A DNA stretch of 64,000 nt from an uncultured virus (IMG/VR IMGVR_UViG_3300008259_004339) (lineage: Duplodnaviria; Heunggongvirae; Uroviricota; Caudoviricetes), in the IMG/VR virus record IMGVR_UViG_3300008259_004339, positions 1 through 64,000 of that record. The stretch is one strand, 5' to 3'. Below are positions 2,731 to 50,365 of the stretch, piece by piece (positions within the stretch are counted from its first letter, which is position 1; each line of letters opens with the position of its first letter). A program made the position numbers and the translations under genes. Under the pieces are notes generated by a model that worked only from the letters and a program-made list of their open reading frames with translations, had not been told where the DNA came from and did not search any database.

Positions 2731-3423
2731 TTAACCGTGACATAACCACGCCTGTATGTTGAATCTCTTGTTTTCCCAAGCCAAATCCTTTGGAGCAGTA
2801 ATTTCACTACAAGCGTGAAACACTGTGGATGGAAAGATTGCTAACTGATTGCTTGTAAGTGGCAATCTGTATGTATGGTTTTTATACATAAAGTATTGTT
2901 CTCCACCCTTCATCACACTTGGATCTTTAACCAAAGTAAGTGCAAATGTAAATGCATTTTGTTTGTTTACATCTACACCATCCCAAGTCATTCCACTAAC
3001 TGACAAATCTCGGTGCCAGTTATAATAACCACCATCACCATAATTAATGATGTGGTACTTATACAAGTATCTGTACTTAGCATAAGCAGTGAGTTCTTCA
3101 TTTTTAGCGTGGGTTAAAAAATCTAATATACCCTGATGAAAGATATATTTGCTTAGATTTGATACATAATAACCCAAATCTTTGTTCTTTTCAGCTTGAT
3201 CATTGTTAAATGGAAGCCAAACATCTTGTCCAGTACACAATGGACTCAATGGTTCATCTGGATTATAAGCAGCACCATCATTGTAACCACCACTCCAATG
3301 TGGTACACCAAAATGTGGCTTTAACTTGACAAAATCTTCATACAATTTAGTAACATAATCTCGGGGAAGAAAATTATCAATTACTACAAGTGGAATGTGT
3401 TCGTGTTCTACAGGAATATACAT
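2731..3423 (-). CDS. 2OG-Fe(II) oxygenase
   Basis: VVIDNFL start, HRD motif, GGE, IFPSTVFH distal His, conserved R in KRFNIQAW. Confidence 0.85.
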   Translation of the reverse strand: MYIPVEHEHIPLVVIDNFLPRDYVTKLYEDFVKLKPHFGVPHWSGGYNDGAAYNPDEPLSPLCTGQDVWLPFNNDQAEKNKDLGYYVSNLSKYIFHQGILDFLTHAKNEELTAYAKYRYLYKYHIINYGDGGYYNWHRDLSVSGMTWDGVDVNKQNAFTFALTLVKDPSVMKGGEQYFMYKNHTYRLPLTSNQLAIFPSTVFHACSEITAPKDLAWENKRFNIQAWLCHG

Positions 3424-3437
3424 AACAATTTATTTTA

Positions 3438-4142
3438 TTAATTATACCAACCAGATACGCTTATTCTTTCTTTGTTTGAGTTATTAACAACCTGTGTTAC
3501 ACAATGTGGTGCTACTCCAGCTGTTACTTCAAAAATTACCAATTTATTAAAAGATGGATTGATCGCTCTGATATTGTTTTTGTCTCTCAAATCAAAATAT
3601 AACCCACCAAAATCAGGATTCCAATCTTTGGTCAAATGACACACAAATGCCAATTTACCGTTAACATCATCTGTATGATTGCTCAAAAAGCAGTTTTCAG
3701 CATAACGACTCACAAAGGTTTTGTCTCCCATCGTAATTTCCAAATCAGTTACACTATTAATAAACTCAATCATTTCTTTACCGTTAAAGAAAGCCATTGT
3801 TTCTTCATAAACAACGGATTTAGCCTTTTCCATAACACCTGGCATAGTTTTATAGAAAAAATAACTGAATAAATTGTTATCTCTAGCGTTACAAGCGTGT
3901 TGATAAGCTTGTTCCATAACATATCTATTACCCGGAATATTTTGCCACCACTCCCAATCACCTTCATATCTAAGTGACGGCATATATGTAGCAGACCAAT
4001 ATTCTTTGTTCATTTCGGTTGTATAGTACTTATACAACTTTTCAGCATATTCTTCTGTCAAAAAGTTATCTATTACAACTCGTCTGTTTTTAACAAACTC
4101 TTCTTTATAAGCAGAAACATTGATATTCTTTATATTAATCAT
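3438..4142 (-). CDS. 2OG-Fe(II) oxygenase (prolyl-hydroxylase-like)
   Basis: VVIDNFL, HTD motif, LTKDWNPDFGG, FNKLVIF, PHCV, ERISVSGWY. Confidence 0.88.
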   Translation of the reverse strand: MINIKNINVSAYKEEFVKNRRVVIDNFLTEEYAEKLYKYYTTEMNKEYWSATYMPSLRYEGDWEWWQNIPGNRYVMEQAYQHACNARDNNLFSYFFYKTMPGVMEKAKSVVYEETMAFFNGKEMIEFINSVTDLEITMGDKTFVSRYAENCFLSNHTDDVNGKLAFVCHLTKDWNPDFGGLYFDLRDKNNIRAINPSFNKLVIFEVTAGVAPHCVTQVVNNSNKERISVSGWYN

Positions 4143-5348: not shown

Positions 5349-6962
5349 ATGCCTCAGTTTCCATCTCAAAATCTAAATACACAAAAAATTTGTGAGTCAT
5401 ATCCCAGATTACTCCAAATCTACAGTAGTAGCTTAGTCCTCAATGGCACAGGCAGCCAAATTCAACTTTTAAATGTAACATCAAGCAATTCTTTAAGCGC
5501 TAGTTACGCACCTTGTAGTTGCCCCATAATGCAAACTGGTAGCACCTACCCAATCACATCCAGTTGGGCACTTTATACAGTCACAGCAAGCTATATACAA
5601 ATAACAAATGTAAGCTATCCTGTTAAAAAAATATTTAATAACTATACAATATCATATACTACCGATTATACAATCTTATGCGATGCTACAAGTGGATCAT
5701 TTGATGTCAAATTACCAAATCCAGTGGGTAATACTAACATCTATAATATAAAGAAAATAGATACTAGTGGACACCGCGTTAATGTCACAGTCTCAAACGC
5801 TTCATTTATAGACTACGATCTAACTCAAAGTATCTCTCATAAAGGAACAAATATGGTAGTTTTTGATATCAAAACAGTAGGAAGTGCTACTGTAACTTGG
5901 AATAGTGGTAGTGCTCAAAGCACATTTAGAGTTACACAAACAAGTGGTAGTAGAGCTATAAAACAAACCAAACGAATATTTGTTTATCAACCGGGTAAAA
6001 GTCAGCAAGTCATTTGCACAAGTAAATTTGGTACGGGAGTAGACGGTATAAAAAAGAGCATAGGTAGCTTTGATGATGATGATGGATACTTCTTTCAGAG
6101 TAGTGGCAGTAGCTTTGGCATTGTACTTAGAAAAACTATTAATAAGATCAAAACTGATACTTTTGTCAGTCAAAGTAGTTGGAACCTAGATAAAATGAAT
6201 GGATCAGGTCCAAGCGGTAACATATTAGATACCAATAAAGCACAAATTTATACAATAGATTATGAATGGTTAGGCGTGGGTAGAGTAAGATATGGCGTGG
6301 TACAAAAAGGTATAGTAATTTATGTACACGAAATAAATAACTACAATAGTTTAGAAACAGTGTATCTACGTAATCCCAATTTGCCTATTAGATTCGAAAT
6401 AACTACCCACAAAAATACTACAACTGGCAGCTTACTGACACAAATATGTAGTACAGTCATAAGCGAAGGCGGTTTTCAAAACACCGGAAAAAGAGTAGTA
6501 GCAGCAAATTATGCAGGAGCTGCAATTGCTTCAGCAGAATACGATGGCGTATTATTTTTAAGATACAATAGCATCTCTTCAAAATGCGCTCAAATAATAC
6601 CAGAACAATTGGATTTTTTAGCAGAACCAGGCAATAATAGTCCTTTTAGTGGTAGATGGGATTTGCTAGTTAATCCAACTGTTACAGACCCTTTAACTTG
6701 GCTCAATGTCACAGGATCAGTAGTCACACAAATAGCCACAACCAATACAGGTAATGTCATTATAAATCCTGGTACAGTCATAGCAACAGGATACTTTTCC
6801 GGCACAGGCGGAGCAGGCGTTGGTGATAAAGTAGCACTGGATCCATATTATGGGTTGGGTAGAAAAATAGATAATACAAGCGACATATTAGCCATTGGTA
6901 TAAAAACCTATAATAATACTTACACAATATACCCAGCACTCGTTATAAGAGAACTAACTTAA
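5349..6962 (+). CDS. Putative virion structural / tail-associated protein (possibly two fused genes)
   Basis: S/T/G-rich beta character, SASYA/TSSWA/TASY motifs, DYTILCDATSG...LP...IKKID module; abrupt change near 5860. Confidence 0.6.
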   Translation: MPQFPSQNLNTQKICESYPRLLQIYSSSLVLNGTGSQIQLLNVTSSNSLSASYAPCSCPIMQTGSTYPITSSWALYTVTASYIQITNVSYPVKKIFNNYTISYTTDYTILCDATSGSFDVKLPNPVGNTNIYNIKKIDTSGHRVNVTVSNASFIDYDLTQSISHKGTNMVVFDIKTVGSATVTWNSGSAQSTFRVTQTSGSRAIKQTKRIFVYQPGKSQQVICTSKFGTGVDGIKKSIGSFDDDDGYFFQSSGSSFGIVLRKTINKIKTDTFVSQSSWNLDKMNGSGPSGNILDTNKAQIYTIDYEWLGVGRVRYGVVQKGIVIYVHEINNYNSLETVYLRNPNLPIRFEITTHKNTTTGSLLTQICSTVISEGGFQNTGKRVVAANYAGAAIASAEYDGVLFLRYNSISSKCAQIIPEQLDFLAEPGNNSPFSGRWDLLVNPTVTDPLTWLNVTGSVVTQIATTNTGNVIINPGTVIATGYFSGTGGAGVGDKVALDPYYGLGRKIDNTSDILAIGIKTYNNTYTIYPALVIRELT

Positions 6963-6965
6963 ATT

Positions 6966-7041
6966 TGGTGGGTCAAACCGGACTTGAACCGATAACCAAA
7001 GAATTATGAGTTCTACGCTCTAACCATTGAGCTATTGACCC
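6966..7041 (-). tRNA. tRNA with CAT anticodon, Ile2-type (lysidine) more likely than Met
   Basis: GGGTCAATAGCTCAATGGTTAGAGCGTAGAACT-CAT-AATTCTTTGGTTATCGGTTCAAGTCCGGTTTGACCCACCA; canonical cloverleaf resembling bacterial tRNA-Ile2. Confidence 0.9.
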
Positions 7042-7064
7042 GTAAATACTTTTACTTTAAAAAA

Positions 7065-7157
7065 TGGTGGCTCCGTAGGGAATTGAACCCTATCAGCACC
7101 CAAATCTAGGGATTATACAGATTATAAGTCTGCCCATGCACCATACATCACAGAGCC
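7065..7157 (-). tRNA. tRNA with TAT anticodon (Ile) and long variable arm
   Basis: GGCTCTG/CGGAGCC acceptor, GCAGA-CT-TAT-AA-TCTGT anticodon arm, 24-nt variable region, TAGGG-TTCAATT-CCCTA T arm, ACCA end. Confidence 0.85.
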
Positions 7158-7170
7158 ATTTTAAAAAAAC

Positions 7171-7243
7171 TGGAGCGGGTCCGAACTTTGCATTTCGCCT
7201 TCTGATCTGGTAGACCAGCGTGCCCTCTTTACACTTGACCCGC
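7171..7243 (-). tRNA. tRNA-Gly(ACC), atypical T arm
   Basis: GCGGGTC/GACCCGC acceptor with U73 (Gly identity), CTGGT-CT-ACC-AG-ATCAG anticodon arm, T loop TGCAAA, TCCA end. Confidence 0.75.
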
Positions 7244-7253
7244 ATTTAAATTC

Positions 7254-7540
7254 AAATAGGAAGGACTAATGATTACCTCCAAGTTTCACAATATGCACCG
7301 TTATTCATCCACAATCCATAAAGTTAATTACTCTCTATGTTAACGATTGATGGGATTGGTTTCCCACAACGACCTACGATATATCATTTATTTTAGCTAC
7401 GATGTCGTTACGCTTGAATTATAGGTTGTACGACCCACAATCCGCCATAGACTTACACTGCACATTATTACTCCAACCAATAATGATTCTTCACCACTAT
7501 TGTGCGTTACCCCTATACAAAGGTTGTTCCGCCACTATCT
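7254..7540 (-). ncRNA. Candidate ~287-nt highly structured ncRNA
   Basis: ORF-free spacer between tRNAs; closing stem AGATAG/CTATTT, nested helices CACAATA/TATTGTG and GGATTGTGGGT/ACCTATAATTC, several hairpins; boxA motif directly upstream. Confidence 0.65.
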
Positions 7541-7541
7541 T

Positions 7542-7557
7542 AAATTGTTAAAGAACT
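7542..7557 (-). promoter_or_regulatory. rrn-type boxA antitermination motif
   Basis: AGTTCTTTAACAATTT versus E. coli rrn boxA TGCTCTTTAACAATTT; recurs before several RNA genes. Confidence 0.65.
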
Positions 7558-7566
7558 ATCAAAAAA

Positions 7567-7642
7567 TGGTGCCTATGACTGGATTCGAACCAGTACTACC
7601 GAAATTTTAAGTTTCGTGACTCTGCCGTTGGTCTACATAGGC
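7567..7642 (-). tRNA. tRNA-Leu(TAA) with short variable loop
   Basis: GCCTATG/CATAGGC acceptor, CGAAA-CT-TAA-AA-TTTCG, 5-nt variable loop, TTCGAAT T loop, ACCA end. Confidence 0.9.
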
Positions 7643-7644
7643 AT

Positions 7645-7660
7645 AAATTGTTTAAAGAAC
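7645..7660 (-). promoter_or_regulatory. boxA-like motif
   Basis: GTTCTTTAAACAATTT between the promoter at 7680-7707 and tRNA-Leu(TAA). Confidence 0.6.
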
Positions 7661-7679
7661 CATCACTTACTACTCTTTT

Positions 7680-7707
7680 ATCTTACCACATCATCTTCTG
7701 ATGTCAA
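7680..7707 (-). promoter_or_regulatory. Sigma70-type promoter
   Basis: TTGACA-N16-TAAGAT with GTGG immediately before the -10. Confidence 0.75.
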
Positions 7708-7723
7708 CTGCTTTTTCAAAAAA

Positions 7724-7800
7724 TGGTAGCTAGGGTCAGATTCGAACTGACACTGTACACTTTTTGAGAGTGCTGCCTCCTGCCTTTGGGCTACCTAGCC
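7724..7800 (-). tRNA. tRNA-Leu(CAA) with short variable loop
   Basis: GGCTAGG/CCTAGCT acceptor, GCACT-CT-CAA-AA-AGTGT, 5-nt variable loop, GTCAG-TTCGAAT-CTGAC, ACCA end. Confidence 0.9.
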
Positions 7801-7809
7801 ATTTAAAAT

Positions 7810-7918
7810 TGTTCTTCCAATGGATTTGCACCATCATTTACGATATGGAAGAGTTACCGTTAGACTTTCACGAATAGTAGAGTCATTATTAATGTTTCTC
7901 TACGCACGATATAGTTCC
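7810..7918 (-). ncRNA. Candidate small RNA ending in a tRNA-like minihelix
   Basis: GTAGAG/CTCTAC hairpin, then TCTTCCA/TGGAAGA acceptor-like stem enclosing ATGG-TGCAAAT-CCAT T-arm-like hairpin, ending ACAA. Confidence 0.45.
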
Positions 7919-7924
7919 TAAATT

Positions 7925-8018
7925 TGGTGGTTCCGCCCGGATTCGAACCGAGACCGTGCTCAAATCTAGAGCTTATCAACGTTATAAGCGTTGCGTTCTA
8001 CCGTTAAACTACGGAACC
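7925..8018 (-). tRNA. tRNA with TAT anticodon (Ile) and long variable arm, second copy
   Basis: GGTTCCG/CGGAACC acceptor, CAACG-CT-TAT-AA-CGTTG, 24-nt variable region with GCTC-TAGATTT-GAGC hairpin, TTCGAAT T loop, ACCA end. Confidence 0.88.
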
Positions 8019-8024
8019 ACTAAA

Positions 8025-8101
8025 TGGTAGCGGGGGAGTGAATTGAACACTCTACCTTCCGGTTATGAGCCGGACGATCTATTCCGTTGATCTACCCCGC
8101 A
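8025..8101 (-). tRNA. Initiator-like tRNA-fMet(CAT)
   Basis: TGCGGGG/CCCCGCT with 1:72 mismatch, TCCGG-CT-CAT-AA-CCGGA, overall similarity to bacterial fMet tRNA, ACCA end. Confidence 0.85.
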
Positions 8102-8124
8102 AATTTTTAAAAGAACATCAAATC

Positions 8125-8767
8125 TTATATCTTAGCTTTGTCTCTATCTCTTTCATATCCTTTAACTTCAATAAAGACATTATCATAATCTAATAATTTA
8201 AAGTCTGGAAAATATCTGTGGTAAGATTCATTCCAATAATATTGGAAATTTTCTTCAATCTTATTTGACCATCTTATATTATTTTTGTTTAAATAATCTA
8301 TTACCAATAATTCCCATTTACCAAGACAACTAGTTTCATTACCTAAACTATCTATAGTCTTAATTGTTTTAACTCTACCACAAACATTTTTACTAGAATA
8401 AGATTCTGGATTATCATCCACTGCTTTCTTCATTTTCAATGAATGTTCCAACCTTTTTTCTTTAGTCCAAACTTTCTTCTGTACTTAACTTAAAGTTTCT
8501 ACCTCTATAAATAGCCGCACATTTATTGCCACAAAAATATACTTTTTTTCGTTTTCTTTTTTTAGAAAACAAAATTATCTGATTACATTCACAGCATTTT
8601 AATGGATTTTTTTCATAATCATCAATAGAGAGTATAGTCCTTGATTTTGCAAAACATTGCAAACTACAATATTTTCTATTTCTTTCTCTAGCTCTAGAAT
8701 TGTATTTTATTATAGAACTACAAACATTACATTTATTTGGATTTAACAAGTATTCTTCTTCTGTCAT
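8125..8767 (-). mobile_element. Homing-endonuclease-like gene (Cys-rich N-terminus plus PD-(D/E)XK nuclease), split by a frameshift near 8455-8475
   Basis: ORF 8462-8767 has CxxC/YCS/FCGNKC zinc motifs; ORF 8125-8451 has KWE...YFPDF...FIEVKG; the second frame reads through as KVWTKEKRLEHSLKMKK. Confidence 0.65.
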
Positions 8768-8842
8768 ATCTAATATATATTAGAGAGCCAAACAAGAATA
8801 CATTTTATTTACACAAAAGTTAAAATTTCAAGGAACAATAAA

Positions 8843-8914
8843 TGGTAGCTGGTATGAGTGCTGCCCTCATTAAAGATTCCGTATGAAAGAATCTTGCTTG
8901 CTGAAGCCCCAGCC
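8843..8914 (-). tRNA. Atypical tRNA-like gene, CAT anticodon, extended anticodon stem
   Basis: GGCTGG/CCAGCT acceptor, GCTT-CAGC-AAGC mini D arm, 8-bp AAGATTCT/GGAATCTT stem with TT-CAT-AC loop, ATGAG-GGCAGCA-CTCAT T arm, ACCA end. Confidence 0.65.
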
Positions 8915-8922
8915 ATTACAAA

Positions 8923-8997
8923 TGGTCGCTCGCCTAAGAATCTCACTTAGTTACCAATGGTTATGAGCCATCGTCAAATAATAACCTGCCGCCAGCT
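8923..8997 (-). tRNA. Atypical tRNA-like gene, CAT anticodon (degenerate fMet-like)
   Basis: AGCTGGC/GCGAGCG acceptor with mismatches, CAGGT-TATT-ATTTG D arm, GATGG-CT-CAT-AA-CCATT, CTAAG-TGAGATT-CTTAG, ACCA end. Confidence 0.6.
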
Positions 8998-9128
8998 GTT
9001 TAAATTGTTTATAAAGAACTATCCTAAAAATTATGTTGGGTGTATCTATTGAATACTCTATCCACCCAACAAACAGAGTATACCATGCGCTAACCCCGCA
9101 ACCAAGAAGTTTTCAACCAAACATCAAA

Positions 9129-9204
9129 TGGTAGAGCCACAGAGAATCGAACTCTGATCTATTCCGTGAAAGGGAATTATCCTAAACCGTTAGACGATGA
9201 CTCC
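9129..9204 (-). tRNA. tRNA-Glu(TTC)
   Basis: GGAGTCATCGTCTAACGGTTTAGGATAATTCCCT-TTC-ACGGAATAGATCAGAGTTCGATTCTCTGTGGCTCTACCA. Confidence 0.92.
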
Positions 9205-9212
9205 GTTAAATG

Positions 9213-9426
9213 AACTGGTAATATTCATTGAGTTACTTATCTACGTAAGCATCGCTGTGTAGCGGACATTTTTCAGCACAGCACACAGTTGTGTTTGGGT
9301 TAATCATTTAATATGTTTAATGATGAAAGTCAAATTCTACACGGAAAAAATGCTTTCGTAATCAATCACGATACTTAAAAGTGTAGTTGTCCCACAATAT
9401 ATGATTTACTTCGTTTATTACCAGTT
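9213..9426 (-). ncRNA. Candidate ~214-nt structured ncRNA
   Basis: Fills the Lys-Glu tRNA spacer; perfect 11-bp terminal stem AACTGGTAATA/TATTACCAGTT; inner helices CTACAC/GTGTAG, CATATATTGTG/CACAACTGTGTG, TCGTGAT/ATTACGA. Confidence 0.6.
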
Positions 9427-9430
9427 AAAA

Positions 9431-9507
9431 TGGTGGCCCCGGTGGGACTCGAACCCACGACCAAAAGCTTAAAAGGCTTCTGCTACTACCAACTGAGCTA
9501 CAAGGCC
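9431..9507 (-). tRNA. tRNA-Lys(TTT)
   Basis: GGCCTTGTAGCTCAGTTGGTAGTAGCAGAAGCCT-TTT-AAGCTTTTGGTCGTGGGTTCGAGTCCCACCGGGGCCACCA. Confidence 0.93.
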
Positions 9508-9510
9508 ATT

Positions 9511-9528
9511 AAAATTTGTTAAAGAACT
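9511..9528 (-). promoter_or_regulatory. boxA-like motif in the tRNA operon leader
   Basis: AGTTCTTTAACAAATTTT directly upstream of tRNA-Lys, downstream of a GGGAG-AAGCA-CTCCT hairpin. Confidence 0.6.
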
Positions 9529-9598
9529 ATTACTTACAGATGTTCTAGAGGAGTGCTTCTCCCACCACGCTGAAAGAACAAATACTTACTACTTCTTT

Positions 9599-9626
9599 AT
9601 CTTACCACTAAGTTTTCAAAGATCAA
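9599..9626 (-). promoter_or_regulatory. Sigma70-type promoter of the tRNA operon
   Basis: TTGATC-N16-TAAGAT with GTGG; downstream sequence nearly identical to that of the 7680 promoter. Confidence 0.7.
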
Positions 9627-9743
9627 CTTCTTTTTTCAAGAAGTTTTGAGGTAAATTATAAATATATACAAATATTCGTAAAATTACCAAAAAGATTATT
9701 TTTTAAACTTCTAAGTTATACTTATAAGTAAATAACTTTTATT

Positions 9744-10469
9744 ATGACATTAGAAGATCAAAATAATAAATATAAAAATTGGTATTATCGTATAATACAT
9801 CATCGTTTAAACAATCCGGTTTTAAACCAATATACAGAAACACATCATATAATTCCAAAGTGTTTAGGTGGGTTAAATTGTTCATCGAATTTAGTTGAAC
9901 TGACTGCTAGAGAACATTATATATGTCACCTTTTATTAACTTCTGTATTTCCATCTTCTTCCGTAGAATATAAGAAAATGTGGAAAGCGTTTGCTTCAAT
10001 GGCTTGGTATAAAAGCGAAAATCAACTTAGAGAATACAAAATAAATAATAGAATTTATCAAAAATTAAAAATCGAATTCAGTAAAATTCAATCACAACAT
10101 CAATCCGGCACATCTAATAGTGGTTATGGAAAAAAATGGTATCACAATGTAGAATTAAAATTAAGCAATAAATTTTATCCAAACAAAGTTCCTAATGGAT
10201 GGGTTTCTGGTAGGGTTATTAACTGGGATAAGTATTTCCTTCCAAAATTCGATTCAAAAGAAACAGAATGTATTCGTTGTAAAAAAATATTTTTACCTAG
10301 AACTTCTGTTCACAAATACTGTACAACTACGTGTGCCGATAAACATCTTTATAATTCCGATACAAAGAAAATTATTATTGAAAAGAACGGTATTACTAAA
10401 TTGACCAAACGAGAAAATTTACATATGTATAAAAAATATGGATGGAATTTAATAGATAGGCTTTATTAA
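9744..10469 (+). mobile_element. HNH homing endonuclease
   Basis: YTETHHIIPKCLGG...NLVELTAREHYICHLLL; antisense insertion in the tRNA array. Confidence 0.88.
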
Positions 10470-10471
10470 AA

Positions 10472-10552
10472 TGGCGCTCCGGGAGGGACTTGAACCCCCA
10501 TTTTCATCCATTTATGCACTTAGGGCTTAGAAGACCCCGCCAGTACCGGAGC
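10472..10552 (-). tRNA. D-armless tRNA-Arg(TCT) with long variable region
   Basis: GCTCCGG/CCGGAGC acceptor, only TACTGGC in place of the D arm, GGGGT-CT-TCT-AA-GCCCT, 22-nt variable region, GGGGG-TTCAAGT-CCCTC, GCCA end. Confidence 0.75.
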
Positions 10553-10564
10553 ATTATGGTATAA

Positions 10565-10897
10565 TTACTTACCGTCGCCCAGTTCGTTACGAACAGCTTT
10601 ACCAAGTTCAGTTAGCTGAAACAGTGGTTCGCCATCTTCGTTGTGACCAGATACATATAATAGACCCTCTGCTACCATCTTGTCAACTGTTTCTTTAACT
10701 TCTGCCAAAGCAATTTCATTATAAATGACTTCAGCTTCAGCTTCATCACATTCAAGTTCTTTCATAATTACTTGAATACAGGCTTCTTTTTCTTCAGCTT
10801 TGACTTGTTCTTCTACTTTTGATGTATCTAGATTGGAACAATGATTTAGTAGATCGTCAATTGACCCGGTGAAATTATCGGTAATGTACTTGTTCAT
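10565..10897 (-). CDS. Hypothetical protein (acidic, possible winged-helix C-terminus)
   Basis: 110-aa ORF; C-terminal MVAEGLL...FQLTELGK. Confidence 0.7.
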   Translation of the reverse strand: MNKYITDNFTGSIDDLLNHCSNLDTSKVEEQVKAEEKEACIQVIMKELECDEAEAEVIYNEIALAEVKETVDKMVAEGLLYVSGHNEDGEPLFQLTELGKAVRNELGDGK

Positions 10898-10914
10898 TTT
10901 TATAAATAGTTGAA

Positions 10915-11202
10915 TTAAATACCGTAGACGGGAACATTCTTGTAATAGCGAACGGATCGATCAATCATCTTATTTAGAATCTTGGCGGTAGATACAGGTA
11001 CATTTGTTTTTGGACCCCAACCATTTTCAGCTCGACCTAGAGCAATAGTGAGTGCCTTGCACTTATCAAAACGATCACCTGCTTTTGTATTGGTGTGACT
11101 CCAACCAAATCGGATGGCGCCATCAATTACTGTGGCAACAACCATACCACGGGGTTGACCCTTGCGGTCACGTACCAACTGCTTGAGTGTAGTGTCTTTC
11201 AT
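10915..11202 (-). CDS. Phage hypothetical protein
   Basis: 95-aa ORF, GWS...GDRFDKCKALTIALGRA motif. Confidence 0.7.
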   Translation of the reverse strand: MKDTTLKQLVRDRKGQPRGMVVATVIDGAIRFGWSHTNTKAGDRFDKCKALTIALGRAENGWGPKTNVPVSTAKILNKMIDRSVRYYKNVPVYGI

Positions 11203-11226
11203 ATAACCTTTATTTAAATATTTAGT

Positions 11227-11409
11227 TTACTTTCCCTCGACGTAACGTAGTAGATCACGATTTGGTTCAGTGCCAATCTTTTCATCTACTGTCTGCTTAA
11301 TAGCAGCCTTATAATAATATTCTGCGTATAGATCTGTTAGATGCAACTTTCGTTCTGCGATTTTTGATTTGAGATTGTTAATAACTGTTTGAGTTGTCTT
11401 CGTCTTCAT
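11227..11409 (-). CDS. Hypothetical protein
   Basis: 60-aa ORF co-oriented in the gene run. Confidence 0.55.
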   Translation of the reverse strand: MKTKTTQTVINNLKSKIAERKLHLTDLYAEYYYKAAIKQTVDEKIGTEPNRDLLRYVEGK

Positions 11410-11533
11410 ATTTTGAATTGTAACGTGATGGTTTTACGTCAGTGGCTTGCCACTTCTTGTTAACCTTTTTATTTGATTTGTTGCGCCAATTTCCTTCGTT
11501 GCGTGAACGACGATCTTTGAATGACTTTCCCAT
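11378..11533 (-). CDS. Small basic hypothetical protein
   Basis: Manual translation MGKSFKDRRSRNEGNWRNKSNKK...(51 aa). Confidence 0.55.
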   Translation of the reverse strand: MGKSFKDRRSRNEGNWRNKSNKKVNKKWQATDVKPSRYNSKYEDEDNSNSY

Positions 11534-15154: not shown

Positions 15155-15997
15155 ATGAAAGGGATTATTTTAGCTGGAGGTACCGGTAGTAGATTATATC
15201 CATTAACCAGTACAATAAATAAACAATTGTTGCCTGTTTATGACAAGCCAATGATTTATTATCCATTTTGCACATTATTGTCGTGTGGTATTAAAGATTT
15301 TTGCATTATTTCTTCTCCTGAATATTTGCCTTCTTATGAAAAGCTATTTGGAGATGGCACTCAATTGGGAGTTAAGCTTACTTATAAAGTGCAATATAAG
15401 CCAAGAGGCATAGCTGAAAGTTTTATTATAGCCGAAGACTTTATTGGTGACGATAATGTTGCTCTTATACTAGGAGACAATATATTCCACGGAATGCCCA
15501 GAGTCAAGCCTTTACTTGAAGGTGCAATTATTTTTGGTTATGAAGTTAATGATCCTAGAGCTTATGGCGTTATTGAATTTGACAGTGAAAACAACGTAAT
15601 AAGCATAGAAGAAAAACCAGTTGAACCCAAAAGTAATTATGCGGTACCAGGCTTATATTTTTATGATAAAAGAGTAGTTCAGTATGCTAAATCACTTAAG
15701 CCTTCGAACAGAGGTGAAATTGAAATAACTGATTTGAACTTAATATATCTTGACAAAGCGCAGCTTACTGCTGTAAAATTTGCTAAAGGCACAGCGTGGT
15801 TAGATGCTGGAAGTGCTGAAACATTATTTGAAAGTAGTGCTTATATACAAGCTATTCAATCAAGACAGGGAATTAAAATAGGATGTATAGAAGAAGAGTG
15901 CTACAAGCGCAAATATATAAGCAAAGAGCAGCTTAAAGCGCTTATAGAAAAATTACCAAACAGTGAGTATAAAAAATATTTAAATAAATTATTATGA
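15155..15997 (+). CDS. rmlA: Glucose-1-phosphate thymidylyltransferase
   Basis: MKGIILAGGTGSRLYPLT, KQLLPVYDKPMIYYP, LILGDNIF, EEKP, RGEIEITD, WLDAG. Confidence 0.96.
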   Translation: MKGIILAGGTGSRLYPLTSTINKQLLPVYDKPMIYYPFCTLLSCGIKDFCIISSPEYLPSYEKLFGDGTQLGVKLTYKVQYKPRGIAESFIIAEDFIGDDNVALILGDNIFHGMPRVKPLLEGAIIFGYEVNDPRAYGVIEFDSENNVISIEEKPVEPKSNYAVPGLYFYDKRVVQYAKSLKPSNRGEIEITDLNLIYLDKAQLTAVKFAKGTAWLDAGSAETLFESSAYIQAIQSRQGIKIGCIEEECYKRKYISKEQLKALIEKLPNSEYKKYLNKLL

Positions 15998-16860
15998 TTA
16001 TATTATTCGGATCAATCGGTTATATTGGAAGTGAATTCAAAAAGCAATTAGCTGAATTAAAGCTACCTGTTTTTCTTTGGCCAAATGCGCATAAAACCAC
16101 TTTTGCAGATTTGGAAAAGTGGTATGATGAAGCTGGATACCCACTCATAGGCGCTGTAATAAATGCAGCGGGATATACTGGTAAACCTAATGTGGATGCA
16201 TGTGAATTAAACAAAGAAGCTACTATTCACGGCAATATTGTATGGCCGCAAATATTAACTGATTGGTGTATGTTAAATGATATACCCTTAGCGCATGTTT
16301 CCAGTGGTTGTATATATGAAGGTAAAAGAGCCGATGGCAATCCTTTTACTGAAGAAGATGTACCAAACTTTAGTTTTGCGCAAAATAACTGTAGTTTCTA
16401 CAGTGGTACCAAAGTAATAGGTGAACAAGTAGTAAAGAAGTGGGAAAAGCACTATATTTGGAGATTACGAATTCCATTTGAAGAGTTTGATAATTCTAGA
16501 AATTATATAAGCAAAATATTAAAGTATGAAAGACTGTTAGATGCTGAAAATAGTGTAAGCAACAAACAAGAATTTGTAAGTGCTTGTATTCAAACTATTA
16601 CCAAAGAAGTTCCATATGGTACATATAATGTGACCAATGGTGGTTATATCACGACCAAGGGTGTAGTAGAAAAGTTTAAGAATACAATTGCAAAAGGCAA
16701 AACCTTTACATTTGTGGAAGAAGATGAATTTTATAAAAATGTAGTCAAAACACCCCGATCAAATTGTGTGATGAGCAACGAAAAATTATTGTCAACTGGA
16801 ATCAAAATGAGAACAGCAGACGAAGCCTTTGACTATTGCATTAACAATTGGACCATATGA
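15994..16860 (+). CDS. rmlD: dTDP-4-dehydrorhamnose reductase-like SDR (possibly bifunctional epimerase/reductase)
   Basis: GSIGYIG, NAAGYTGKPNVDACE, SSGCIY, YSGTK, PRSNC. Confidence 0.8.
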   Translation: MIILFGSIGYIGSEFKKQLAELKLPVFLWPNAHKTTFADLEKWYDEAGYPLIGAVINAAGYTGKPNVDACELNKEATIHGNIVWPQILTDWCMLNDIPLAHVSSGCIYEGKRADGNPFTEEDVPNFSFAQNNCSFYSGTKVIGEQVVKKWEKHYIWRLRIPFEEFDNSRNYISKILKYERLLDAENSVSNKQEFVSACIQTITKEVPYGTYNVTNGGYITTKGVVEKFKNTIAKGKTFTFVEEDEFYKNVVKTPRSNCVMSNEKLLSTGIKMRTADEAFDYCINNWTI

Positions 16861-17813
16861 ATATATTAGTAACAGGAGCATGTGGATTTATTGGAAGTCA
16901 CTTTATAGAAGAAATTCTAAAAAGGGATGATGTTGTTATGGTTTATAACATTGATTGTGGTACTTATGCTGCAAACAAAAAACTTCCCTTTCAAAAAGAT
17001 CCTAGATATCACAGATTATCAATGAACATTGCTGCGCCTTATTTTCCAGATCAAAAGAAATATATTGATTCATTAAATTTAGATTATGTGATTCATTTTG
17101 CAGCAGAATCGCACGTGGATAACTCTATCAAGGGACCAAAAAGATTTATTGAAACAAACATTATTGGTACTTTTAATCTGTTAGAAATGCTTAAGGGTAC
17201 AAACATAAAGAAGTTTATCCACGTATCCACCGATGAAGTGTATGGATCATTGAATCACAAAGAAGGATCTTTTACTACAGACAGTCCTTATAGAGCAAAT
17301 AATCCATATTCAGCTACTAAAGCTGCCAGCGATCTACTGGTTAGAAGTTATAACAAAACTTATAATTTCCCAGCGATTATTACCAATTGCAGCAACAACT
17401 TTGGGTCCAGACAATATACCGAAAAGATGATTCCAGTATGTATTCAGAAACTTCTCAACAAAGAAACCATACCTTTATATGGTAATGGGTCGAATGTAAG
17501 AGATTGGATCTATGTCAAAGACCACGTTAATGCACTTATATGCGTTCTATTAGATGGTAAAATAGGAAAACAGTATTTGATAGGGTCTGACAACGAACTA
17601 TCTAACTATGAGCTTATACACGTGATTAAAGAGGTATATAGTACCATAACTGGAATAGAAGTAGACTGGGAGTGGTTTAAATATGTTGAAGACCGTAAAG
17701 GACACGATAGTAGATACAGCATTGACAATCGTGACTTCAAGATGGAGTTTCCTCAATTTAACACAACTAAATTTGATATTGCTATTTTGGAAACGGTTAA
17801 ATCATATTTATAA
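16857..17813 (+). CDS. rmlB: dTDP-glucose 4,6-dehydratase
   Basis: TGACGFIGS, HFAAESHVDNSI, HVSTDEVYG, PYSATKA, RDWIYVKDH, DRKGHD. Confidence 0.95.
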   Translation: MNILVTGACGFIGSHFIEEILKRDDVVMVYNIDCGTYAANKKLPFQKDPRYHRLSMNIAAPYFPDQKKYIDSLNLDYVIHFAAESHVDNSIKGPKRFIETNIIGTFNLLEMLKGTNIKKFIHVSTDEVYGSLNHKEGSFTTDSPYRANNPYSATKAASDLLVRSYNKTYNFPAIITNCSNNFGSRQYTEKMIPVCIQKLLNKETIPLYGNGSNVRDWIYVKDHVNALICVLLDGKIGKQYLIGSDNELSNYELIHVIKEVYSTITGIEVDWEWFKYVEDRKGHDSRYSIDNRDFKMEFPQFNTTKFDIAILETVKSYL

Positions 17814-26824: not shown

Positions 26825-27298
26825 ATGAATAATATAAATCATCTATTATCTCAAAATGGCATACTATCATCATTCAATATATGTAAAAAAGTAAGTCCCA
26901 CAAAAGTAAAGAATATAAAAAATAAGTTGTTGAAAAATGGTGTACCCGAAAATAAAATTGAAGATGAAGTGTATAAACATATTATAAATAATCACATAGA
27001 TGATTCAATAATTGATGATATACCAGGAATAATATTAGAAGGTGCGCCACCTAAAATCAAAATTTCTCCAGCAGTTCAAAAGAAAATAGCATCGGCATCA
27101 AATGAGATTAGTGAATATTTCAAAAAGAATAAATTTACAAAGGAAGAAATAATATTGTATATACAAGCTGTATTTTTTCTTTGTAGTATCACAAATGATG
27201 ATGTTGCGGATTTTAAAGAAAAATATAATATTAATAACAGAGAAGATGAAGACTATTTAGATGAAGAGGACGAAGACGAAGAATCAGGTTTTGAATGA
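26825..27298 (+). CDS. Hypothetical protein, acidic tail
   Basis: 157-aa ORF. Confidence 0.65.
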   Translation: MNNINHLLSQNGILSSFNICKKVSPTKVKNIKNKLLKNGVPENKIEDEVYKHIINNHIDDSIIDDIPGIILEGAPPKIKISPAVQKKIASASNEISEYFKKNKFTKEEIILYIQAVFFLCSITNDDVADFKEKYNINNREDEDYLDEEDEDEESGFE

Positions 27299-37831: not shown

Positions 37832-38833
37832 TTAAAAATTTTTAATTTGATTATAAATCCATTCGTAGGTATTTTTTATACCTATATCCAGTGGTTGCGT
37901 AGGTGACCAATTCATTTTTTCTTTATATAAACAATTGTTTGAATTTCTACCACGTACACCCGTAGGACATTTAAAACCATATTTTTTATAAAATTCTTCT
38001 CCCGCAATATTACTTATTTTAAGATTTTTACCAGACAATTTAATTGCCATTTGAGCTAAATCGTTTATTGATACCATCTGTTCAGACCCAATATTTACGG
38101 GTCCAATAAAACTATCTTGTCGCATAAGTCTCAAAATACCTTCTATACATTCGTCTATATAAAGAAATGAACGAGTTTGCAATCCATCTCCCCATACTTC
38201 AAACGTAGAATTGTTTTCCGATTCAATCGCTTTGCGACACATAGCGGCAGGCGCTTTTTCTTTGCCACCTTTATATGTTCCGCATGGACCAAATATATTG
38301 TGAAACCTAGCAATTCTAACGTCTAACTTATAATTTCTATTATAGGCTAAATATAATCTTTCACTAAATAATTTTTCCCAACCATATTCACTGTCTGGTT
38401 CAGCTGGATAAGCATCTTTTTCCGCACATTTTGGATTGTTCGGATCCATCTGATTATATTCAGGATATACACAGGCACTAGATGAATAAAATACTTTCTT
38501 TACCTTTTTCTTAACACATTGATGTACTACATTAAGATTAATTAATGCAGAATTATGCATTACATTTGCATCATTCTGACCTGTAAAAATATACAAAGCG
38601 CCACCCATATCAGCCGCTAATTGATACACCTCATCGATGTTTTCTGAAATTACAGATTCTACAATGTTAGAATCGGTTAAATCTCCTAAAATAAATTCGT
38701 CGGCATAATTATGATATTCATTATTTTTGATATCAACTCCACGGACCCAATAACCCTCTTCTTTTAGTTTTTTAACCAAATGTCCACCTATAAAACCACC
38801 AGCGCCTAATACTATAGCTCTTTTTTGAAACAT
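37832..38833 (-). CDS. GDP-mannose 3,5-epimerase-like NAD-dependent epimerase
   Basis: GAGGFIG, YQLAADMGG, YSSSACVYP, YGWEKL, KEKAPAAMCRK, GVRGRNS. Confidence 0.88.
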   Translation of the reverse strand: MFQKRAIVLGAGGFIGGHLVKKLKEEGYWVRGVDIKNNEYHNYADEFILGDLTDSNIVESVISENIDEVYQLAADMGGALYIFTGQNDANVMHNSALINLNVVHQCVKKKVKKVFYSSSACVYPEYNQMDPNNPKCAEKDAYPAEPDSEYGWEKLFSERLYLAYNRNYKLDVRIARFHNIFGPCGTYKGGKEKAPAAMCRKAIESENNSTFEVWGDGLQTRSFLYIDECIEGILRLMRQDSFIGPVNIGSEQMVSINDLAQMAIKLSGKNLKISNIAGEEFYKKYGFKCPTGVRGRNSNNCLYKEKMNWSPTQPLDIGIKNTYEWIYNQIKNF

Positions 38834-38834
38834 A

Positions 38835-49019: not shown

Positions 49020-49020
49020 T

Positions 49021-50364: not shown

Positions 50365-50365
50365 T

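Follow-up and report, generated by a model that had tools for sequence, protein, structure and literature searches.

Composition of the tRNA island

Why should a phage carry a dozen tRNA-shaped genes, most of which depart from what is normal in bacteria? This question is raised by an uncultured freshwater phage in which positions 6966-10552 of the window (the whole 64,000-nt stretch of DNA that was analysed) contain, on the minus strand, 12 co-oriented tRNA-shaped genes that each end in NCCA. According to one report (PMC11551756), every bacterial tRNA known so far is a canonical cloverleaf. The most likely answer is that the twelve-gene block works as a tRNA supply island matched to the phage's codons, with selection acting on the shapes of its genes. 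The genes are:

6966..7041 (-), canonical tRNA(CAU); ARAGORN default (CAT), Rfam 69.2 bits
7065..7157 (-), tRNA(UAU) type B, 93 nt, 5-nt D-loop, GAU-tipped extra arm; ARAGORN default (TAT), Rfam 39.3 bits
7171..7243 (-), g10, tRNA-Gly-like, anticodon ACC; ARAGORN -mt only
7567..7642 (-), tRNA-Leu(UAA), type I, without intron; ARAGORN default (TAA)
7724..7800 (-), tRNA-Leu(CAA), type I, 5-nt variable loop, 3-bp D stem; ARAGORN default (CAA)
7925..8018 (-), tRNA(UAU) type A, 94 nt, 7/5 cloverleaf, A73; ARAGORN default (TAT), Rfam 62.5 bits
8025..8101 (-), initiator-like tRNA(CAU), U1.U72 mismatch, A11:U24, boxA-like site ahead at 8104-8116; ARAGORN default (CAT) and Rfam
8844..8915 (-), g05, CAU tRNA of the alternative-elbow class; 84.8 bits with our own covariance model R1
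8923..8997 (-), g04, tRNA-shaped, anticodon CAU, 1-72 mismatch, G at T-loop position 55; ARAGORN -mt only
9129..9204 (-), canonical tRNA-Glu(UUC); ARAGORN default (TTC) and Rfam
9431..9507 (-), near-canonical tRNA-Lys(UUU), one D-stem mismatch; ARAGORN default (TTT), Rfam 64.2 bits
10472..10552 (-), g01, tRNA-shaped, anticodon UCU, G73-CCA; Rfam tRNA match

The original prediction, made from the sequence alone, had listed twelve co-oriented genes with encoded CCA, half of them with anticodons for AUG or AUA. All twelve were recovered where it had placed them, on the minus strand and ending in NCCA, and six anticodons (four CAU and two UAU) are of that kind. Where it had seen at least eight departures from bacterial norms, manual reading counted nine: two long-arm UAU tRNAs, two type I leucine tRNAs, one UCU gene lacking the D arm, three genes whose D/T loops are odd and a single CAU gene with a 1-72 mismatch.

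ARAGORN detected 8 of the 12 genes with default settings. The Rfam tRNA model matched nine, these eight plus 10475-10552 (anticodon UCU), the latter with 31.4 bits against a cut-off of 29 and with the D arm skipped. Even at E<=10 there was no Rfam match to g10, g05 or g04, which were called only by ARAGORN's relaxed or mitochondrial modes. Since these modes also give spurious calls in the array region (26 genes at -ps70, two overlapping extras in -mt), the reality of these three genes rests on conservation and compensatory changes.

Codon usage of the phage

In 55 reading frames of the phage (16,551 codons), the two most frequent codons are AAA and GAA; UUA and UUG account for 38% and 28% of leucine codons, AGA for 55% of arginine, GGU for 49% of glycine and AUA for 32% of isoleucine codons. 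The island anticodons match the preferred codons AAA, GAA, AGA, UUA, UUG, AUA and GGU. We consider the best explanation, with a probability of about two in three, to be a conserved modular RNA-gene island whose anticodons read the most-used codons per family of this AT-rich phage, so that it supplies the phage's own decoding capacity. Precursors would be processed into 12 CCA-bearing tRNAs or tRNA-like RNAs, and most members would have remodelled bodies that still fold as cloverleaves under purifying selection, with type I leucine tRNAs, an initiator-like tRNA and a D-armless UCU form kept among them.

Remodelled bodies and compensatory changes

The gene g05 combines a 4-bp D stem, the D-loop CAGC, an 8-bp anticodon stem, a 2-nt variable loop and the T-loop GGCAGCA. 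We found this alternative-elbow class in 44 stretches (25 unique sequences), with CCA in place in 24 of the 25 and 5-7 of the 7 acceptor pairs formed. It is wide among phages and has at least five anticodons, CAU, CGU, UGU and GUC, to which UUC and CCA are added with another D arm; with a second search pattern, 23 of 26 unique matches were cloverleaf-like, mostly with a UUC loop. In an alignment of 19 sequences (A2), 90.1% of cells are paired as against 60.1% after shuffling, a value equalled by 0 of 500 shuffles, while slid controls reach 33-42%; two-sided changes occur in 21 of 24 pairs. In the proposed elbow, A18/G19 of the D-loop would contact G55/C56 of the T-loop. The tertiary pair is G/C 19 times, A/U once and never A/C or G/U among tRNA-like matches, and a second A/U case lies at L285 1739-1818; the covariation of this pair depends on these two A/U cases. 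The loop motifs do not vary between members with different anticodons or from different phages, and the identity elements fit the anticodons, with G73 in two of two GUC members and G1-C72 plus C2-G71 in three of four CGU/UGU members.

The CAU gene g04 has 61 copies in 8 unique variants, with two-sided changes in the T stem and the anticodon stem. Both g04 and the gene at 8025-8101 have only two of the three consecutive G-C pairs typical of bacterial initiators; in relatives, the slot of the latter holds variants of 72-87 nt with unchanged acceptor ends. There are 55 copies of g10 (7 unique variants), whose anticodon and acceptor stems show double changes. Its ends are G1-C72, C2-G71, G3-C70 and U73-CCA, acceptor and discriminator bases that we take to be the identity set typical of glycine tRNAs. 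It also has a 4-bp T stem with an 8-nt loop, complementary bases at 32/38 and 33/37, and an A34 anticodon, which to our knowledge is unknown among bacterial glycine tRNAs. With its closable anticodon loop, A34 and 8-nt T-loop, g10 may be non-decoding.

In g01 (24 copies, 4 unique variants, no indels), 4 nt stand in place of the D arm and the 21-nt variable region contains a small hairpin; the missing D-loop is presumably the usual carrier of a main ArgRS identity base. Its acceptor, anticodon and T arms with a 4-nt connector are reminiscent of D-armless mitochondrial tRNAs as outlined in PMC7609411, but g01 belongs to a phage, its T-loop is canonical and its CCA encoded, and its variable region measures 21 nt.

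In the type A UAU tRNA, a 24-nt variable region forms a short stem with GAU in its 7-nt loop; the gene is identical in 61 locus copies and has a fully compensated variant in L149. GAU occupies extra-arm loop positions 3-5 in six of six unique long-arm sequences. The alignment of the long-arm UAU tRNAs (A3) is 84% paired as compared with 65% in shuffles. These genes share the long variable arm and UAU anticodon with allo-tRNA(UAU) (Mukai et al. 2017, PMC5389517), but the allo-tRNAs described there have 8/4 or 9/3 acceptor/T stems, whereas the island tRNAs have 7/5, A73 and an invariant GAU loop. The arm displays GAU, which is the common anticodon for isoleucine, in its 7-nt loop and may attract the enzyme that charges isoleucine to these AUA-reading tRNAs.

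The two leucine tRNAs resemble the Streptomyces coelicolor type I tRNA-Leu (Fan et al. 2019, PMC6614811) in that a leucine anticodon (CAA, UAA) sits on a body whose variable loop is short, and that study describes a bacterial LeuRS able to charge such a tRNA. They differ in being phage genes, and in that the same slots in relatives hold 84-/88-nt long-arm or intron-split forms.

Could the odd genes simply be decaying pseudogenes, or chance cloverleaves thrown up by relaxed folding? That three of them are missed by both Rfam and default ARAGORN, and that the relaxed modes make obvious false calls here, would fit this explanation. Nevertheless, each of the four is conserved across many contigs, where double changes compensate each other and indels are absent, and the elbow class keeps its loop motifs and, almost throughout, an in-register CCA; we therefore regard decay or chance as highly improbable. 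Decay is refuted by the compensated stems of g10, g04, the elbow class and the long-arm UAU tRNAs. The original prediction had proposed selection on altered shapes, and this agrees with stems that stay paired via double changes, with no stem-breaking pattern across relatives.

Alternation of forms among relatives

The block is syntenic, with the order of anticodons kept, in the window and in 20 loci from 20 other viral contigs. In each slot the anticodon is constant, while canonical and remodelled versions alternate. The Arg-UCU slot is D-armless in 10 of 21 arrays and canonical (75-77 nt) in 11, and the Glu slot holds either a canonical tRNA or, in L016 and L038, an alternative-elbow Glu tRNA. 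In the second UAU slot, the 93-nt long-arm form occurs in 9 of 21 arrays and a canonical 77-nt form in 7, with no call in 5; the extra arm is thus not strictly needed, as the canonical tRNAs fill the slot without it. The leucine slots hold 76/77-nt genes or longer ones, 84 nt for CAA and 88 nt for UAA. In 4 of 12 loci the UAA gene is interrupted after U34 by a group I intron (Rfam Intron_gpI, 70.7-74.8 bits), a position that we take to be the classic one in tRNA-Leu(UAA). These relatives thereby resemble cyanobacterial and plastid tRNA-Leu(UAA), unlike the intron-free gene of the window, where homology with them breaks at 7609.

The replacement of one form by another, slot by slot, was probably aided by repeated leader sequences and by two homing endonucleases within the array:

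8125..8767 (-), two adjacent reading frames (8462-8767, 8125-8451); phrog_15137, E 1.7e-15, second frame
9744..10469 (+), homing endonuclease gene, opposite in orientation to the array; phrog_655, E 3.9e-36

The first two frames look like one split endonuclease gene, the second of them covering only positions 109-201 of the 236 in the phrog_15137 profile. The DNA of the antisense gene, which is missing from L001 and L002, weakly matches T4-type homing endonuclease genes.

Such alternation is also relevant to a more tentative explanation, which takes up the anti-tRNase or translation-takeover idea of the original prediction, namely that the bodies were remodelled to evade host tRNA-cutting defence enzymes or a phage tRNA-destroying enzyme. 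It is plausible, and compatible with codon supply, that the island sustains translation once host tRNAs are cut. Constant anticodons on diversifying bodies, with canonical and remodelled alleles in close relatives, are what an arms race predicts, and the altered parts are those used by shape-reading nucleases. Lys-UUU and Met-CAU are targets of a bacterial Schlafen (PMC13056530), Lys and fMet are targets of PrrC and VapC (PMC10264068), phage tRNAs are reported to escape retron and other defences (PMC11555353), and the homing endonuclease SegB is associated with phage tRNAs (PMC13096335), much as endonucleases lie within this array. Like phage tRNAs for which resistance to host tRNA nucleases has been proposed or demonstrated (PMC10264068; PMC11555353), the island includes copies of attacked species that depart from host norms. 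However, those tRNAs are described as having anticodon-loop substitutions (van den Berg et al. 2023; Azam et al. 2024), whereas in the island it is the elbow, variable arm and D arm that differ, and the anticodon loops, including those of the Lys, Glu and initiator-like tRNAs, look ordinary. Moreover, the classic targets Lys and Glu are its most canonical members, and a scan of the window's 101 reading frames, with about a third of the genome in view, revealed no tRNA nuclease, RNA-repair enzyme (RNA ligase, kinase-phosphatase) or charging enzyme. Arrays of many unrelated phages have remodelled elbows too, a pattern that may stem from ancestry and not from a local arms race. The anticodon set fits the phage's top codons, a match for which ordinary codon supply already accounts.

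Spacer RNAs and leader-like elements

Between the genes of the island lie further elements:

7541-7249 (-), structured ncRNA of ~293 nt closed by a long-range helix, boxA-like site ahead at 7545-7556
7645..7723 (-), second promoter-like module, with boxA-like site 7648-7660; repeat and motif match
9005..9113 (-), region preceding g04, with a promoter-like site (read by eye only), a hairpin that is conserved and boxA-like site 9005-9019
9205..9423 (-), spacer RNA module of 219 nt, inverted ends, bordered on either side by a 6-nt direct repeat
9573..9642 (-), promoter-like module with -35 and -10 hexamers and an A/T-rich stretch, a 70-nt direct repeat, followed by boxA-like site 9516-9527

Of the ncRNA candidates, promoters and boxA sites predicted earlier, one RNA (7249-7541) has 108 predicted pairs, 13 of them changed on both sides, and a z of -2.57, and a promoter-like module, identified by motif match only, recurs at 7654-7723 and 9573-9642 in copies that are 74% alike. 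The stretch 9025-9113 is 89-96% identical in seven relatives (L008, L011, L016, L017, L024, L025 and L027). The boxA-like motif, a regular expression derived from the window's own sites, has five matches, as against 0.39 on average and at most 3 in 200 first-order Markov runs; all five are on the minus strand, each 3-9 nt upstream of an RNA gene. Transcription would probably be by host RNA polymerase from the repeated strong promoters, with boxA-like sites ahead of RNA genes as in ribosomal RNA operons, whose boxA consensus we assume the sites to resemble. By analogy, strong promoters, a boxA-like 12-mer, stable RNA genes and a long-range helix around an RNA recall rrn leaders, but here five copies of the motif, identified by motif match only, precede tRNA-sized genes within 2 kb of a phage. 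In rrn operon leaders, boxA antitermination sites bind NusB-NusE, according to PMC2800207.

RNA evidence comes from assembled metatranscriptome contigs of relatives, 90-100% alike, with depth summed over all contigs and possible DNA carry-over in low-depth parts. These contigs include several array genes. The 293-nt RNA is abundant, with a word depth of 204-288 compared to <30 in most neighbouring bins, and is back-joined at 7541->7249 (X4, X7) and 7539->7246 (X4). The 219-nt module, whose borders are supported by comparing filled and empty sites, is likewise back-joined (circular) in runs X4 and X5 (joint 9423->9205, 219 back), and its 249-nt RNA contigs are linearised at different points. 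Neither the 293-nt junction nor the joined 32-mer of the 219-nt RNA was present in the DNA sequences searched. We rejected a group I intron identity for both, as they have no match to the Rfam group I intron model and no G available at their 3' ends.

These RNAs bear on another, similarly tentative reading, in which g10, g01 and perhaps g04 are non-decoding tRNA-shaped stable RNAs serving as processing signals, non-ribosomal amino-acid carriers or decoys. The 5' end of g10 lies 2-8 nt from the 3' boundary of the 293-nt RNA, the 219-nt RNA terminates at, or <=6 nt from, the 5' end of tRNA-Glu, and the highest summed depth is in bin 7154-7280 over g10 (X4, X5) and in the g01 bin (X5). The closable anticodon loop and non-canonical T-loop of g10 and the missing D arm of g01 point the same way, and the T4 and T5 arrays contain tRNA-like stable RNAs of unknown function. 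On the other hand, the ACC of g10 pairs with GGU, the phage's top glycine codon, on Gly-type acceptor and discriminator bases, and g01 occupies a canonical tRNA-Arg(UCU) slot with its anticodon unchanged.

The arrangement is similar to the phage T4 cluster, which serves AT-rich codons, is co-oriented, has stable RNAs of unknown function between tRNAs and homing endonuclease genes (SegB) inside, and presumably shares Arg-UCU, Leu-UAA and an AUA-reading tRNA with the island. In contrast to T4, the island has other endonuclease families, mostly remodelled bodies, boxA-like sites and circular-appearing spacers. The phage's polymerase shares only 28% identity with enzymes of T4-type cyanophages and 41.8% with that of the nearest cultured phage, and the island would belong to a lineage of uncultured phages distantly related to T4-like phages.

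The canonical tRNA(CAU) at 6966..7041 is either an elongator Met or a lysidine-type Ile2 tRNA. On its antisense strand, the Rfam Plastid-ycf2 leader model gives 56.8 bits, which we read as likeness to plastid trnI-CAU, and its counterpart in L018 and L001 contains a 35-36-nt hairpin within the anticodon loop.

Detection and reality of the twelve tRNA genes

The reading best supported by our analysis is that the island at 6966-10552 is a working, codon-matched tRNA supply whose members have been remodelled yet remain under selection and are exchanged as modules. The twelve genes of the original prediction are all present as it described them, on the minus strand and every one ending in CCA:

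10472-10552, minus strand: UCU gene (g01)
9431-9507, minus strand: Lys-UUU
9129-9204, minus strand: Glu-UUC
8923-8997, minus strand: CAU gene (g04)
8844-8915, minus strand: CAU gene (g05)
8025-8101, minus strand: initiator-like CAU gene
7925-8018, minus strand: UAU gene, type A
7724-7800, minus strand: Leu-CAA
7567-7642, minus strand: Leu-UAA
7171-7243, minus strand: ACC gene (g10)
7065-7157, minus strand: UAU gene, type B
6966-7041, minus strand: last CAU gene

ARAGORN in its default mode recovers 8 of the 12, and nine pass the Rfam tRNA model (RF00005, gathering cut-off 29 bits) with 31.4-69.2 bits, namely ARAGORN's eight and the UCU gene. The latter, matched at 10475-10552, scores 31.4 bits in an alignment that skips the D arm and inserts 19 nt in the variable region. 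The remaining three, g04, g05 and g10, have no Rfam tRNA match even at E<=10, and their cloverleaves appear only in the relaxed or mitochondrial modes of ARAGORN, which also give false calls nearby; judged on this window alone, these three would be doubtful. The genes nevertheless show the four covariation-kept stems and the 3' NCCA of tRNAs, g01 being without a D stem.

Selection on the odd genes

The original prediction attributed the altered shapes to selection rather than decay, and the relatives bear this out, as stem-breaking changes are not what they show. For g10, the 55 copies comprise seven unique variants without indels, with both-side changes at three anticodon-stem pairs and two acceptor pairs. 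Double changes are likewise seen in the T and anticodon stems of g04 (8 variants among 61 copies). In g05 the D-loop CAGC and the T-loop GGCAGCA are invariant, and the D, anticodon and T stems covary. The remaining odd gene, g01, is conserved (4 variants among 24 copies) and offers little variation to test.

Synteny and modular exchange

Relatives were sought in the viral collection with a pattern made from the two UAU tRNAs. This gave 35 stretches and 33 scanned loci, 23 with the same array and 10 representing chance matches without tRNAs; two further contigs were added through a neighbouring protein. Gene order is constant in the window and in 20 loci on 20 contigs: UCU, UUU, UUC, the CAU genes, UAU, CAA, UAA, a structured RNA, ACC, UAU and CAU. 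What fills a given slot, by contrast, alternates. The UCU slot is filled by the D-armless form in 10 arrays and by a canonical tRNA-Arg of 75-77 nt in 11; in the second UAU slot, 9 arrays have a long-arm form of 93 nt and 7 a canonical tRNA of 77 nt, with no call in the other 5. The Leu-CAA gene is 77 or 84 nt long, and the initiator-like CAU gene ranges from 72 to 87 nt among relatives. The Glu slot is canonical, but two loci (L016 and L038) have there a tRNA of the alternative-elbow type described below. The Leu-UAA gene is 76 nt, 88 nt, or interrupted directly after U34 by a group I intron, found in 4 of 12 loci with Rfam scores of 70.7-74.8 bits:

L008 3564-3756: group I intron in tRNA-Leu(UAA) of a relative
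L021 3021-3213: the same, in a second relative
L001 4917-5102: the same, in a third relative
L013 347-539: the same, in a fourth relative

The homology of these relatives to the window breaks at 7609, and the window's own copy is intron-free, with no group I intron match (RF00028) in 6000-11500 at E<=10. Identity to relatives shifts sharply at further recurrent points (9538/9537, 9114/9113, 8131/8130, 7925 and 7166), which makes the island a mosaic of interchangeable modules. Exactly at 8130/8131, a short way upstream of the boxA-like site that precedes the initiator-like tRNA, 107 additional letters are present in several relatives and RNA contigs. The island also contains two homing endonuclease genes:

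9744-10469, plus strand: homing endonuclease gene (phrog_655)
8125-8767, minus strand: second homing endonuclease gene, probably split into two frames, of which only the second matches, to the C-terminal half of phrog_15137

The array's final CAU tRNA has, in two relatives (L018 4075-4190 and L001 6126-6242), a 35-36-nt hairpin insertion in the anticodon loop after C34, which is either a gene-disabling mini-insertion or a novel kind of intervening sequence.

A class of tRNAs with an alternative elbow

The loops of g05 define a class of tRNAs with D-loop CAGC and T-loop GGCAGCA. With 84.8 bits on R1, our covariance model of the class, g05 is its sole member among the window's 12 genes. The class was first searched for in the viral collection with a fixed-spacing pattern of both loops; a loose-spacing pattern was dropped, its matches being mostly due to chance. 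Fixed spacing gave 44 stretches, which reduce to 25 unique sequences (27 with a longer flank), all cloverleaf-like. Their acceptor stems differ widely in sequence yet pair at 5-7 of 7 positions, and NCCA is in register in 24 of the 25. Most anticodons are CAU (19), with two each of CGU, UGU and GUC. Both GUC members have G73, and three of the four CGU/UGU members have G1-C72 and C2-G71, which we take to be identity marks for Asp and Thr, respectively.

Among 19 aligned class sequences, 90.1% of cells are paired compared with 60.1% in shuffled alignments (0 of 500 shuffles as high) and 33-42% when partners are slid, and 21 of the 24 pairs show both-side changes. The usual plan has a 7-bp acceptor, no 8-9 linker, a 4-bp D stem with a 4-nt D-loop, an 8-bp anticodon stem, a 2-nt variable loop and a 5-bp T stem. 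In the GUC members, by contrast, the linker is UA, the D stem has 6 bp and the anticodon stem 5 bp; both plans stack to 12 layers. Searching with R1 added members in which CAGC sits in a larger D arm, with an unchanged T-loop and the anticodons UUC and CCA, and found none in 20 bacterial and archaeal control loci. A second pattern, made for the larger-D-arm plan, gave 26 unique hits, 23 of them cloverleaf-like and most with a UUC loop. When G or A in the D-loop was combined with C or U in the T-loop, the tRNA-like hits numbered 19 for G/C, one for A/U and none for A/C or G/U; a second, unrelated A/U case lies at L285 1739-1818. With these two A/U cases behind it, the pattern fits a retained G19-C56-type pair, with A18 predicted to lie opposite G55.

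In three dense arrays of other phages (L270, L277 and L285) class genes occupy the gaps between Rfam tRNA hits and go unreported at E<=1. A quarter of the genes of our island escape standard tools, and the same blind spot extends to many other phages with dense tRNA arrays. Inventories of phage tRNAs are incomplete as a result, and so are the studies of codon supply and counter-defence that draw on them. When a relative's alternative-elbow array was compared with cultured phages, it matched only an Aeromonas-phage tRNA-Leu and one stretch of a Pelagibacter phage. R1 did not find the elbow in 151 Cyanobacteriota genomes, a weak test in which few candidates were scored, and its exact pattern was not found in 401 + 401 genomes of two other phyla. 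A Pelagibacteraceae genome has a weak R1 match (G003:C1:239518-239585, 24 bits, E 2.5e-4). Two hits of the second pattern, both on one contig from a giant-virus bin (L306 and L307), are alternative-elbow tRNA-Glu-like genes that have 7/7 paired acceptors but lack an encoded CCA; the elbow is perhaps not confined to phages, or else the contig may have been placed in the wrong bin.

UAU tRNAs with a long extra arm

Both UAU tRNAs of the island fold as a 7/5 cloverleaf with A73, the 7-nt anticodon loop CUUAUAA and a variable region of ~24 nt. We aligned six unique sequences, comprising the two window types, variants from L003, L018 and L149, and one from an unrelated array (L276). In this alignment 84% of cells are paired compared with 65% in shuffles, and both-side changes occur in 14 of 25 pairs. 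The core of the extra arm is 3 bp long, with U-A, G-C or C-G as its middle pair, and the 7-nt loop has G-A-U at positions 3-5 in every aligned member. The arm may show the usual isoleucine anticodon (GAU) to the charging enzyme, and the invariance of GAU agrees with this. It is dispensable in some relatives, as canonical UAU tRNAs fill the same slot there. A search for the long-arm UAU pattern in 185,579 species genomes gave 76 stretches, none of them a UAU tRNA. Identification as allo-tRNAs was rejected: the 7/5 helices of the phage tRNAs are paired in 92% and 100% of cells, whereas allo-tRNAs have 8/4 or 9/3 acceptor/T stems (PMC5389517). In the unrelated phage array, the tRNA at L276 1992-2082 unites two peculiarities, having a UAU anticodon and a long extra arm of the GAU type as well as a GGCAGUA T-loop.

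Other members and the match to phage codons

Bacterial initiator tRNAs lack a Watson-Crick 1-72 pair and have A11:U24 and three consecutive G-C pairs. The 1-72 pair is missing in both the CAU gene at 8025-8101 (U1.U72), which also has A11:U24 in its D stem, and g04 (A1.G72). As both genes are one short of the three G-C pairs in a row at the base of the anticodon stem, we call them initiator-like and no more. The last CAU gene, at 6966-7041, is canonical, and its antisense strand scores 56.8 bits on the Rfam plastid leader model, which presumably overlaps trnI-CAU; it may therefore be either a lysidine-type Ile tRNA or an elongator Met tRNA. Both Leu genes (UAA, 76 nt; CAA, 77 nt) have a 3-bp D stem and a 5-nt variable loop, which, with their Leu anticodons, places them among type I tRNA-Leu (variable loop of 4-5 nt). 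Leucine charging would have a precedent in Streptomyces, whose type I tRNA-Leu is charged by Streptomyces LeuRS (PMC6614811).

In 55 reading frames of the phage (16,551 codons, third-position G+C 0.24), AAA and GAA are the two commonest codons. UUA (38%) and UUG (28%) are the top two Leu codons, AGA makes up 55% of Arg, GGU 49% of Gly and AUA 32% of Ile. Each anticodon of the island reads a phage-favoured codon, including ACC for GGU. Judged from phage codons alone, this is the ordinary pattern of codon supply.

A further explanation, put forward by the original prediction, is that the remodelled tRNAs may counter host tRNA nucleases. Such a counter-defence would be compatible with our findings, and some indirect colour comes from recently described defences that recognise the shape of a tRNA or cleave it elsewhere than at the anticodon. 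Cas12a3 engages the T arm, acceptor stem and tail of tRNA (PMC12851939), a bacterial Schlafen cuts Lys-UUU and Met-CAU (PMC13056530) and an anticodon-nuclease hypothesis is presented for phage tRNAs (PMC10264068). However, the Lys and Glu genes, the most often attacked species in the island, are near canonical and the least altered, and the anticodon loops of the Lys, Glu and CAU genes look ordinary.

Putative transcription signals

A 70-nt module, comprising an A/T-rich stretch and -35 and -10 hexamers, is present in two copies that are 74% alike. A third promoter-like site with a hairpin, at ~9030-9113, was read by eye and is conserved in relatives. In addition, a 12-15-nt motif derived from the window, presumably resembling the rrn boxA element, occurs in five copies, all on the minus strand and all within the island (chance expectation: mean 0.39, maximum 3 in 200 simulations). 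The copies lie 3-9 nt upstream of RNA genes (Lys, g04, initiator-like, Leu-UAA and the structured RNA), and the site is unchanged in 10 aligned relatives. From its sequence, the motif would bind NusB-NusE and function in antitermination.

Spacer RNAs that appear circular

The spacer of 300 nt that separates Leu-UAA from g10 is conserved in 10 unique relatives, with 108 predicted pairs of which 13 are changed on both sides. The 293-nt RNA made from this spacer has a long-range helix in which the stretch just after boxA pairs with that just before g10 (fold z -2.57). RNA data came from four metatranscriptome runs (one marine, two riverine and one freshwater) in the form of assembled Logan contigs. 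In three of the runs the 293-nt RNA has a word depth of 204-288, compared with <30 in most neighbouring bins. It is joined back on itself in contigs of 326 and 323 nt, 7541 to 7249 (runs X4 and X7) and 7539 to 7246 (X4), and in run X5 each loose end of a 295-nt contig reads into the other end. A second spacer RNA, the 219 nt from 9423 to 9205 in the Lys-Glu gap, is back-joined in X4 and X5, with 249-nt contigs opened at different points. The joined contigs exceed the unit length by ~30 nt, as would be expected of a closed cycle in a 31-mer graph. Neither junction 32-mer occurs in the window or in any of the 349 DNA loci, the nearest sequence being 9 mismatches off. On these contigs, we read the 293-294-nt and 219-nt spacer RNAs as circles, tandem RNA multimers being less likely. 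To our knowledge, bacterial and phage circular RNAs from outside introns are hardly known.

Both spacer RNAs have a closing helix and direct repeats of 6-7 nt at their borders, so each junction is ambiguous by 2-6 nt. The 219-nt unit is optional, some relatives having Lys and Glu 7 nt apart with one repeat copy. Its 3' border can fall exactly where tRNA-Glu begins, and the 293-nt RNA stops 2-8 nt before g10. By energy the 219-nt RNA is not clearly structured (z -0.80), and its 24-codon reading frame is cut short, as read by eye, in one relative (L012), so that it probably does not code. Neither RNA belongs to an Rfam family (best match manA, 14.2 bits against a cut-off of 55), and among the Rfam models neither group I introns nor small ribozymes matched. 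RNase P RNA, tmRNA, group I intron and permuted intron-exon were rejected by eye, as boundaries misfit and there is no 3' G; so was archaeal bulge-helix-bulge processing, the offset being opposite to that of a bulge-helix-bulge. The 124-nt spacer between the first UAU and Leu-CAA (7801-7924, minus strand) has A/U-rich border motifs like those of both circular RNAs and almost no cover in the four runs.

Summed contig depth, a poor measure, is highest in the bins over g10 (991 in X4, 385 in X5) and g01 (169 in X5), which is a hint of expression only. Some members such as g10 and g01 may be tRNA-shaped RNAs with a non-decoding role. The depth of 0 over the homing endonuclease gene in the four RNA runs proves nothing, because relatives lack this gene.

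A possible parallel tRNA set

Beyond a codon-matched supply, one may speculate on a broader model, which we consider unlikely as a whole, with perhaps one chance in five of being correct. According to this model, certain phages make a parallel tRNA set on a non-standard chassis that is accepted by the ribosome and charging enzymes and not by host tRNA nucleases or modification enzymes that read tRNA shape, and the same island also makes abundant circular spacer RNAs by a cut-and-join route tied to tRNA processing. The chassis may comprise the alternative elbow, the extra arm with a decoy isoleucine anticodon for the charging enzyme, the type I Leu form and the D-armless form. Phage tRNA clusters, type I Leu tRNAs and tRNA-based counter-defence are already known. 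The literature searched, with most subscription journals outside it, holds no description of the CAGC/GGCAGCA elbow class, of a GAU-tipped UAU tRNA, of a D-armless phage form in an Arg-UCU slot, of boxA in phage tRNA arrays or of circular spacer RNAs. With the alternative elbow and the GAU-tipped arm, nature offers experiments that can tell which features of a tRNA are indispensable to the translation machinery, and tRNAs with this elbow or arm could serve as orthogonal scaffolds. If the remodelling is an escape from tRNA-cutting defences, the arms race widens from the anticodon loop to the whole tRNA body.

Phage lineage and gene content

The window is phage DNA from an uncultured lineage. 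Its DNA polymerase, of family B, shares 41.8% identity with the enzyme of Microcystis phage Mel-JY01 and ~28% with T4-type cyanophage and other T4-like enzymes. Megablast with the array found no cultured relative. Blastn gave generic tRNA and homing-endonuclease matches only, leaving the tRNA region without a cultured-phage DNA match, and g04 and g05 together as a DNA query had zero matches. Long blocks of a 171-kb viral contig (L009, L010 and L036) are 100% identical to the window. The G+C content of the 64 kb is ~32%, and other genes encode a clamp-loader ATPase, 2OG-Fe(II) oxygenases (two, at 2731-4142), a virion protein, a head protease and several HNH endonucleases. Sugar-nucleotide and glycosyltransferase genes are numerous; together, genes for sugar-nucleotide synthesis, aminotransferases, methyltransferases and glycosyltransferases take up about one third of the window (15155-17813, 27295-28410, 37832-38869 and 47359-63428).
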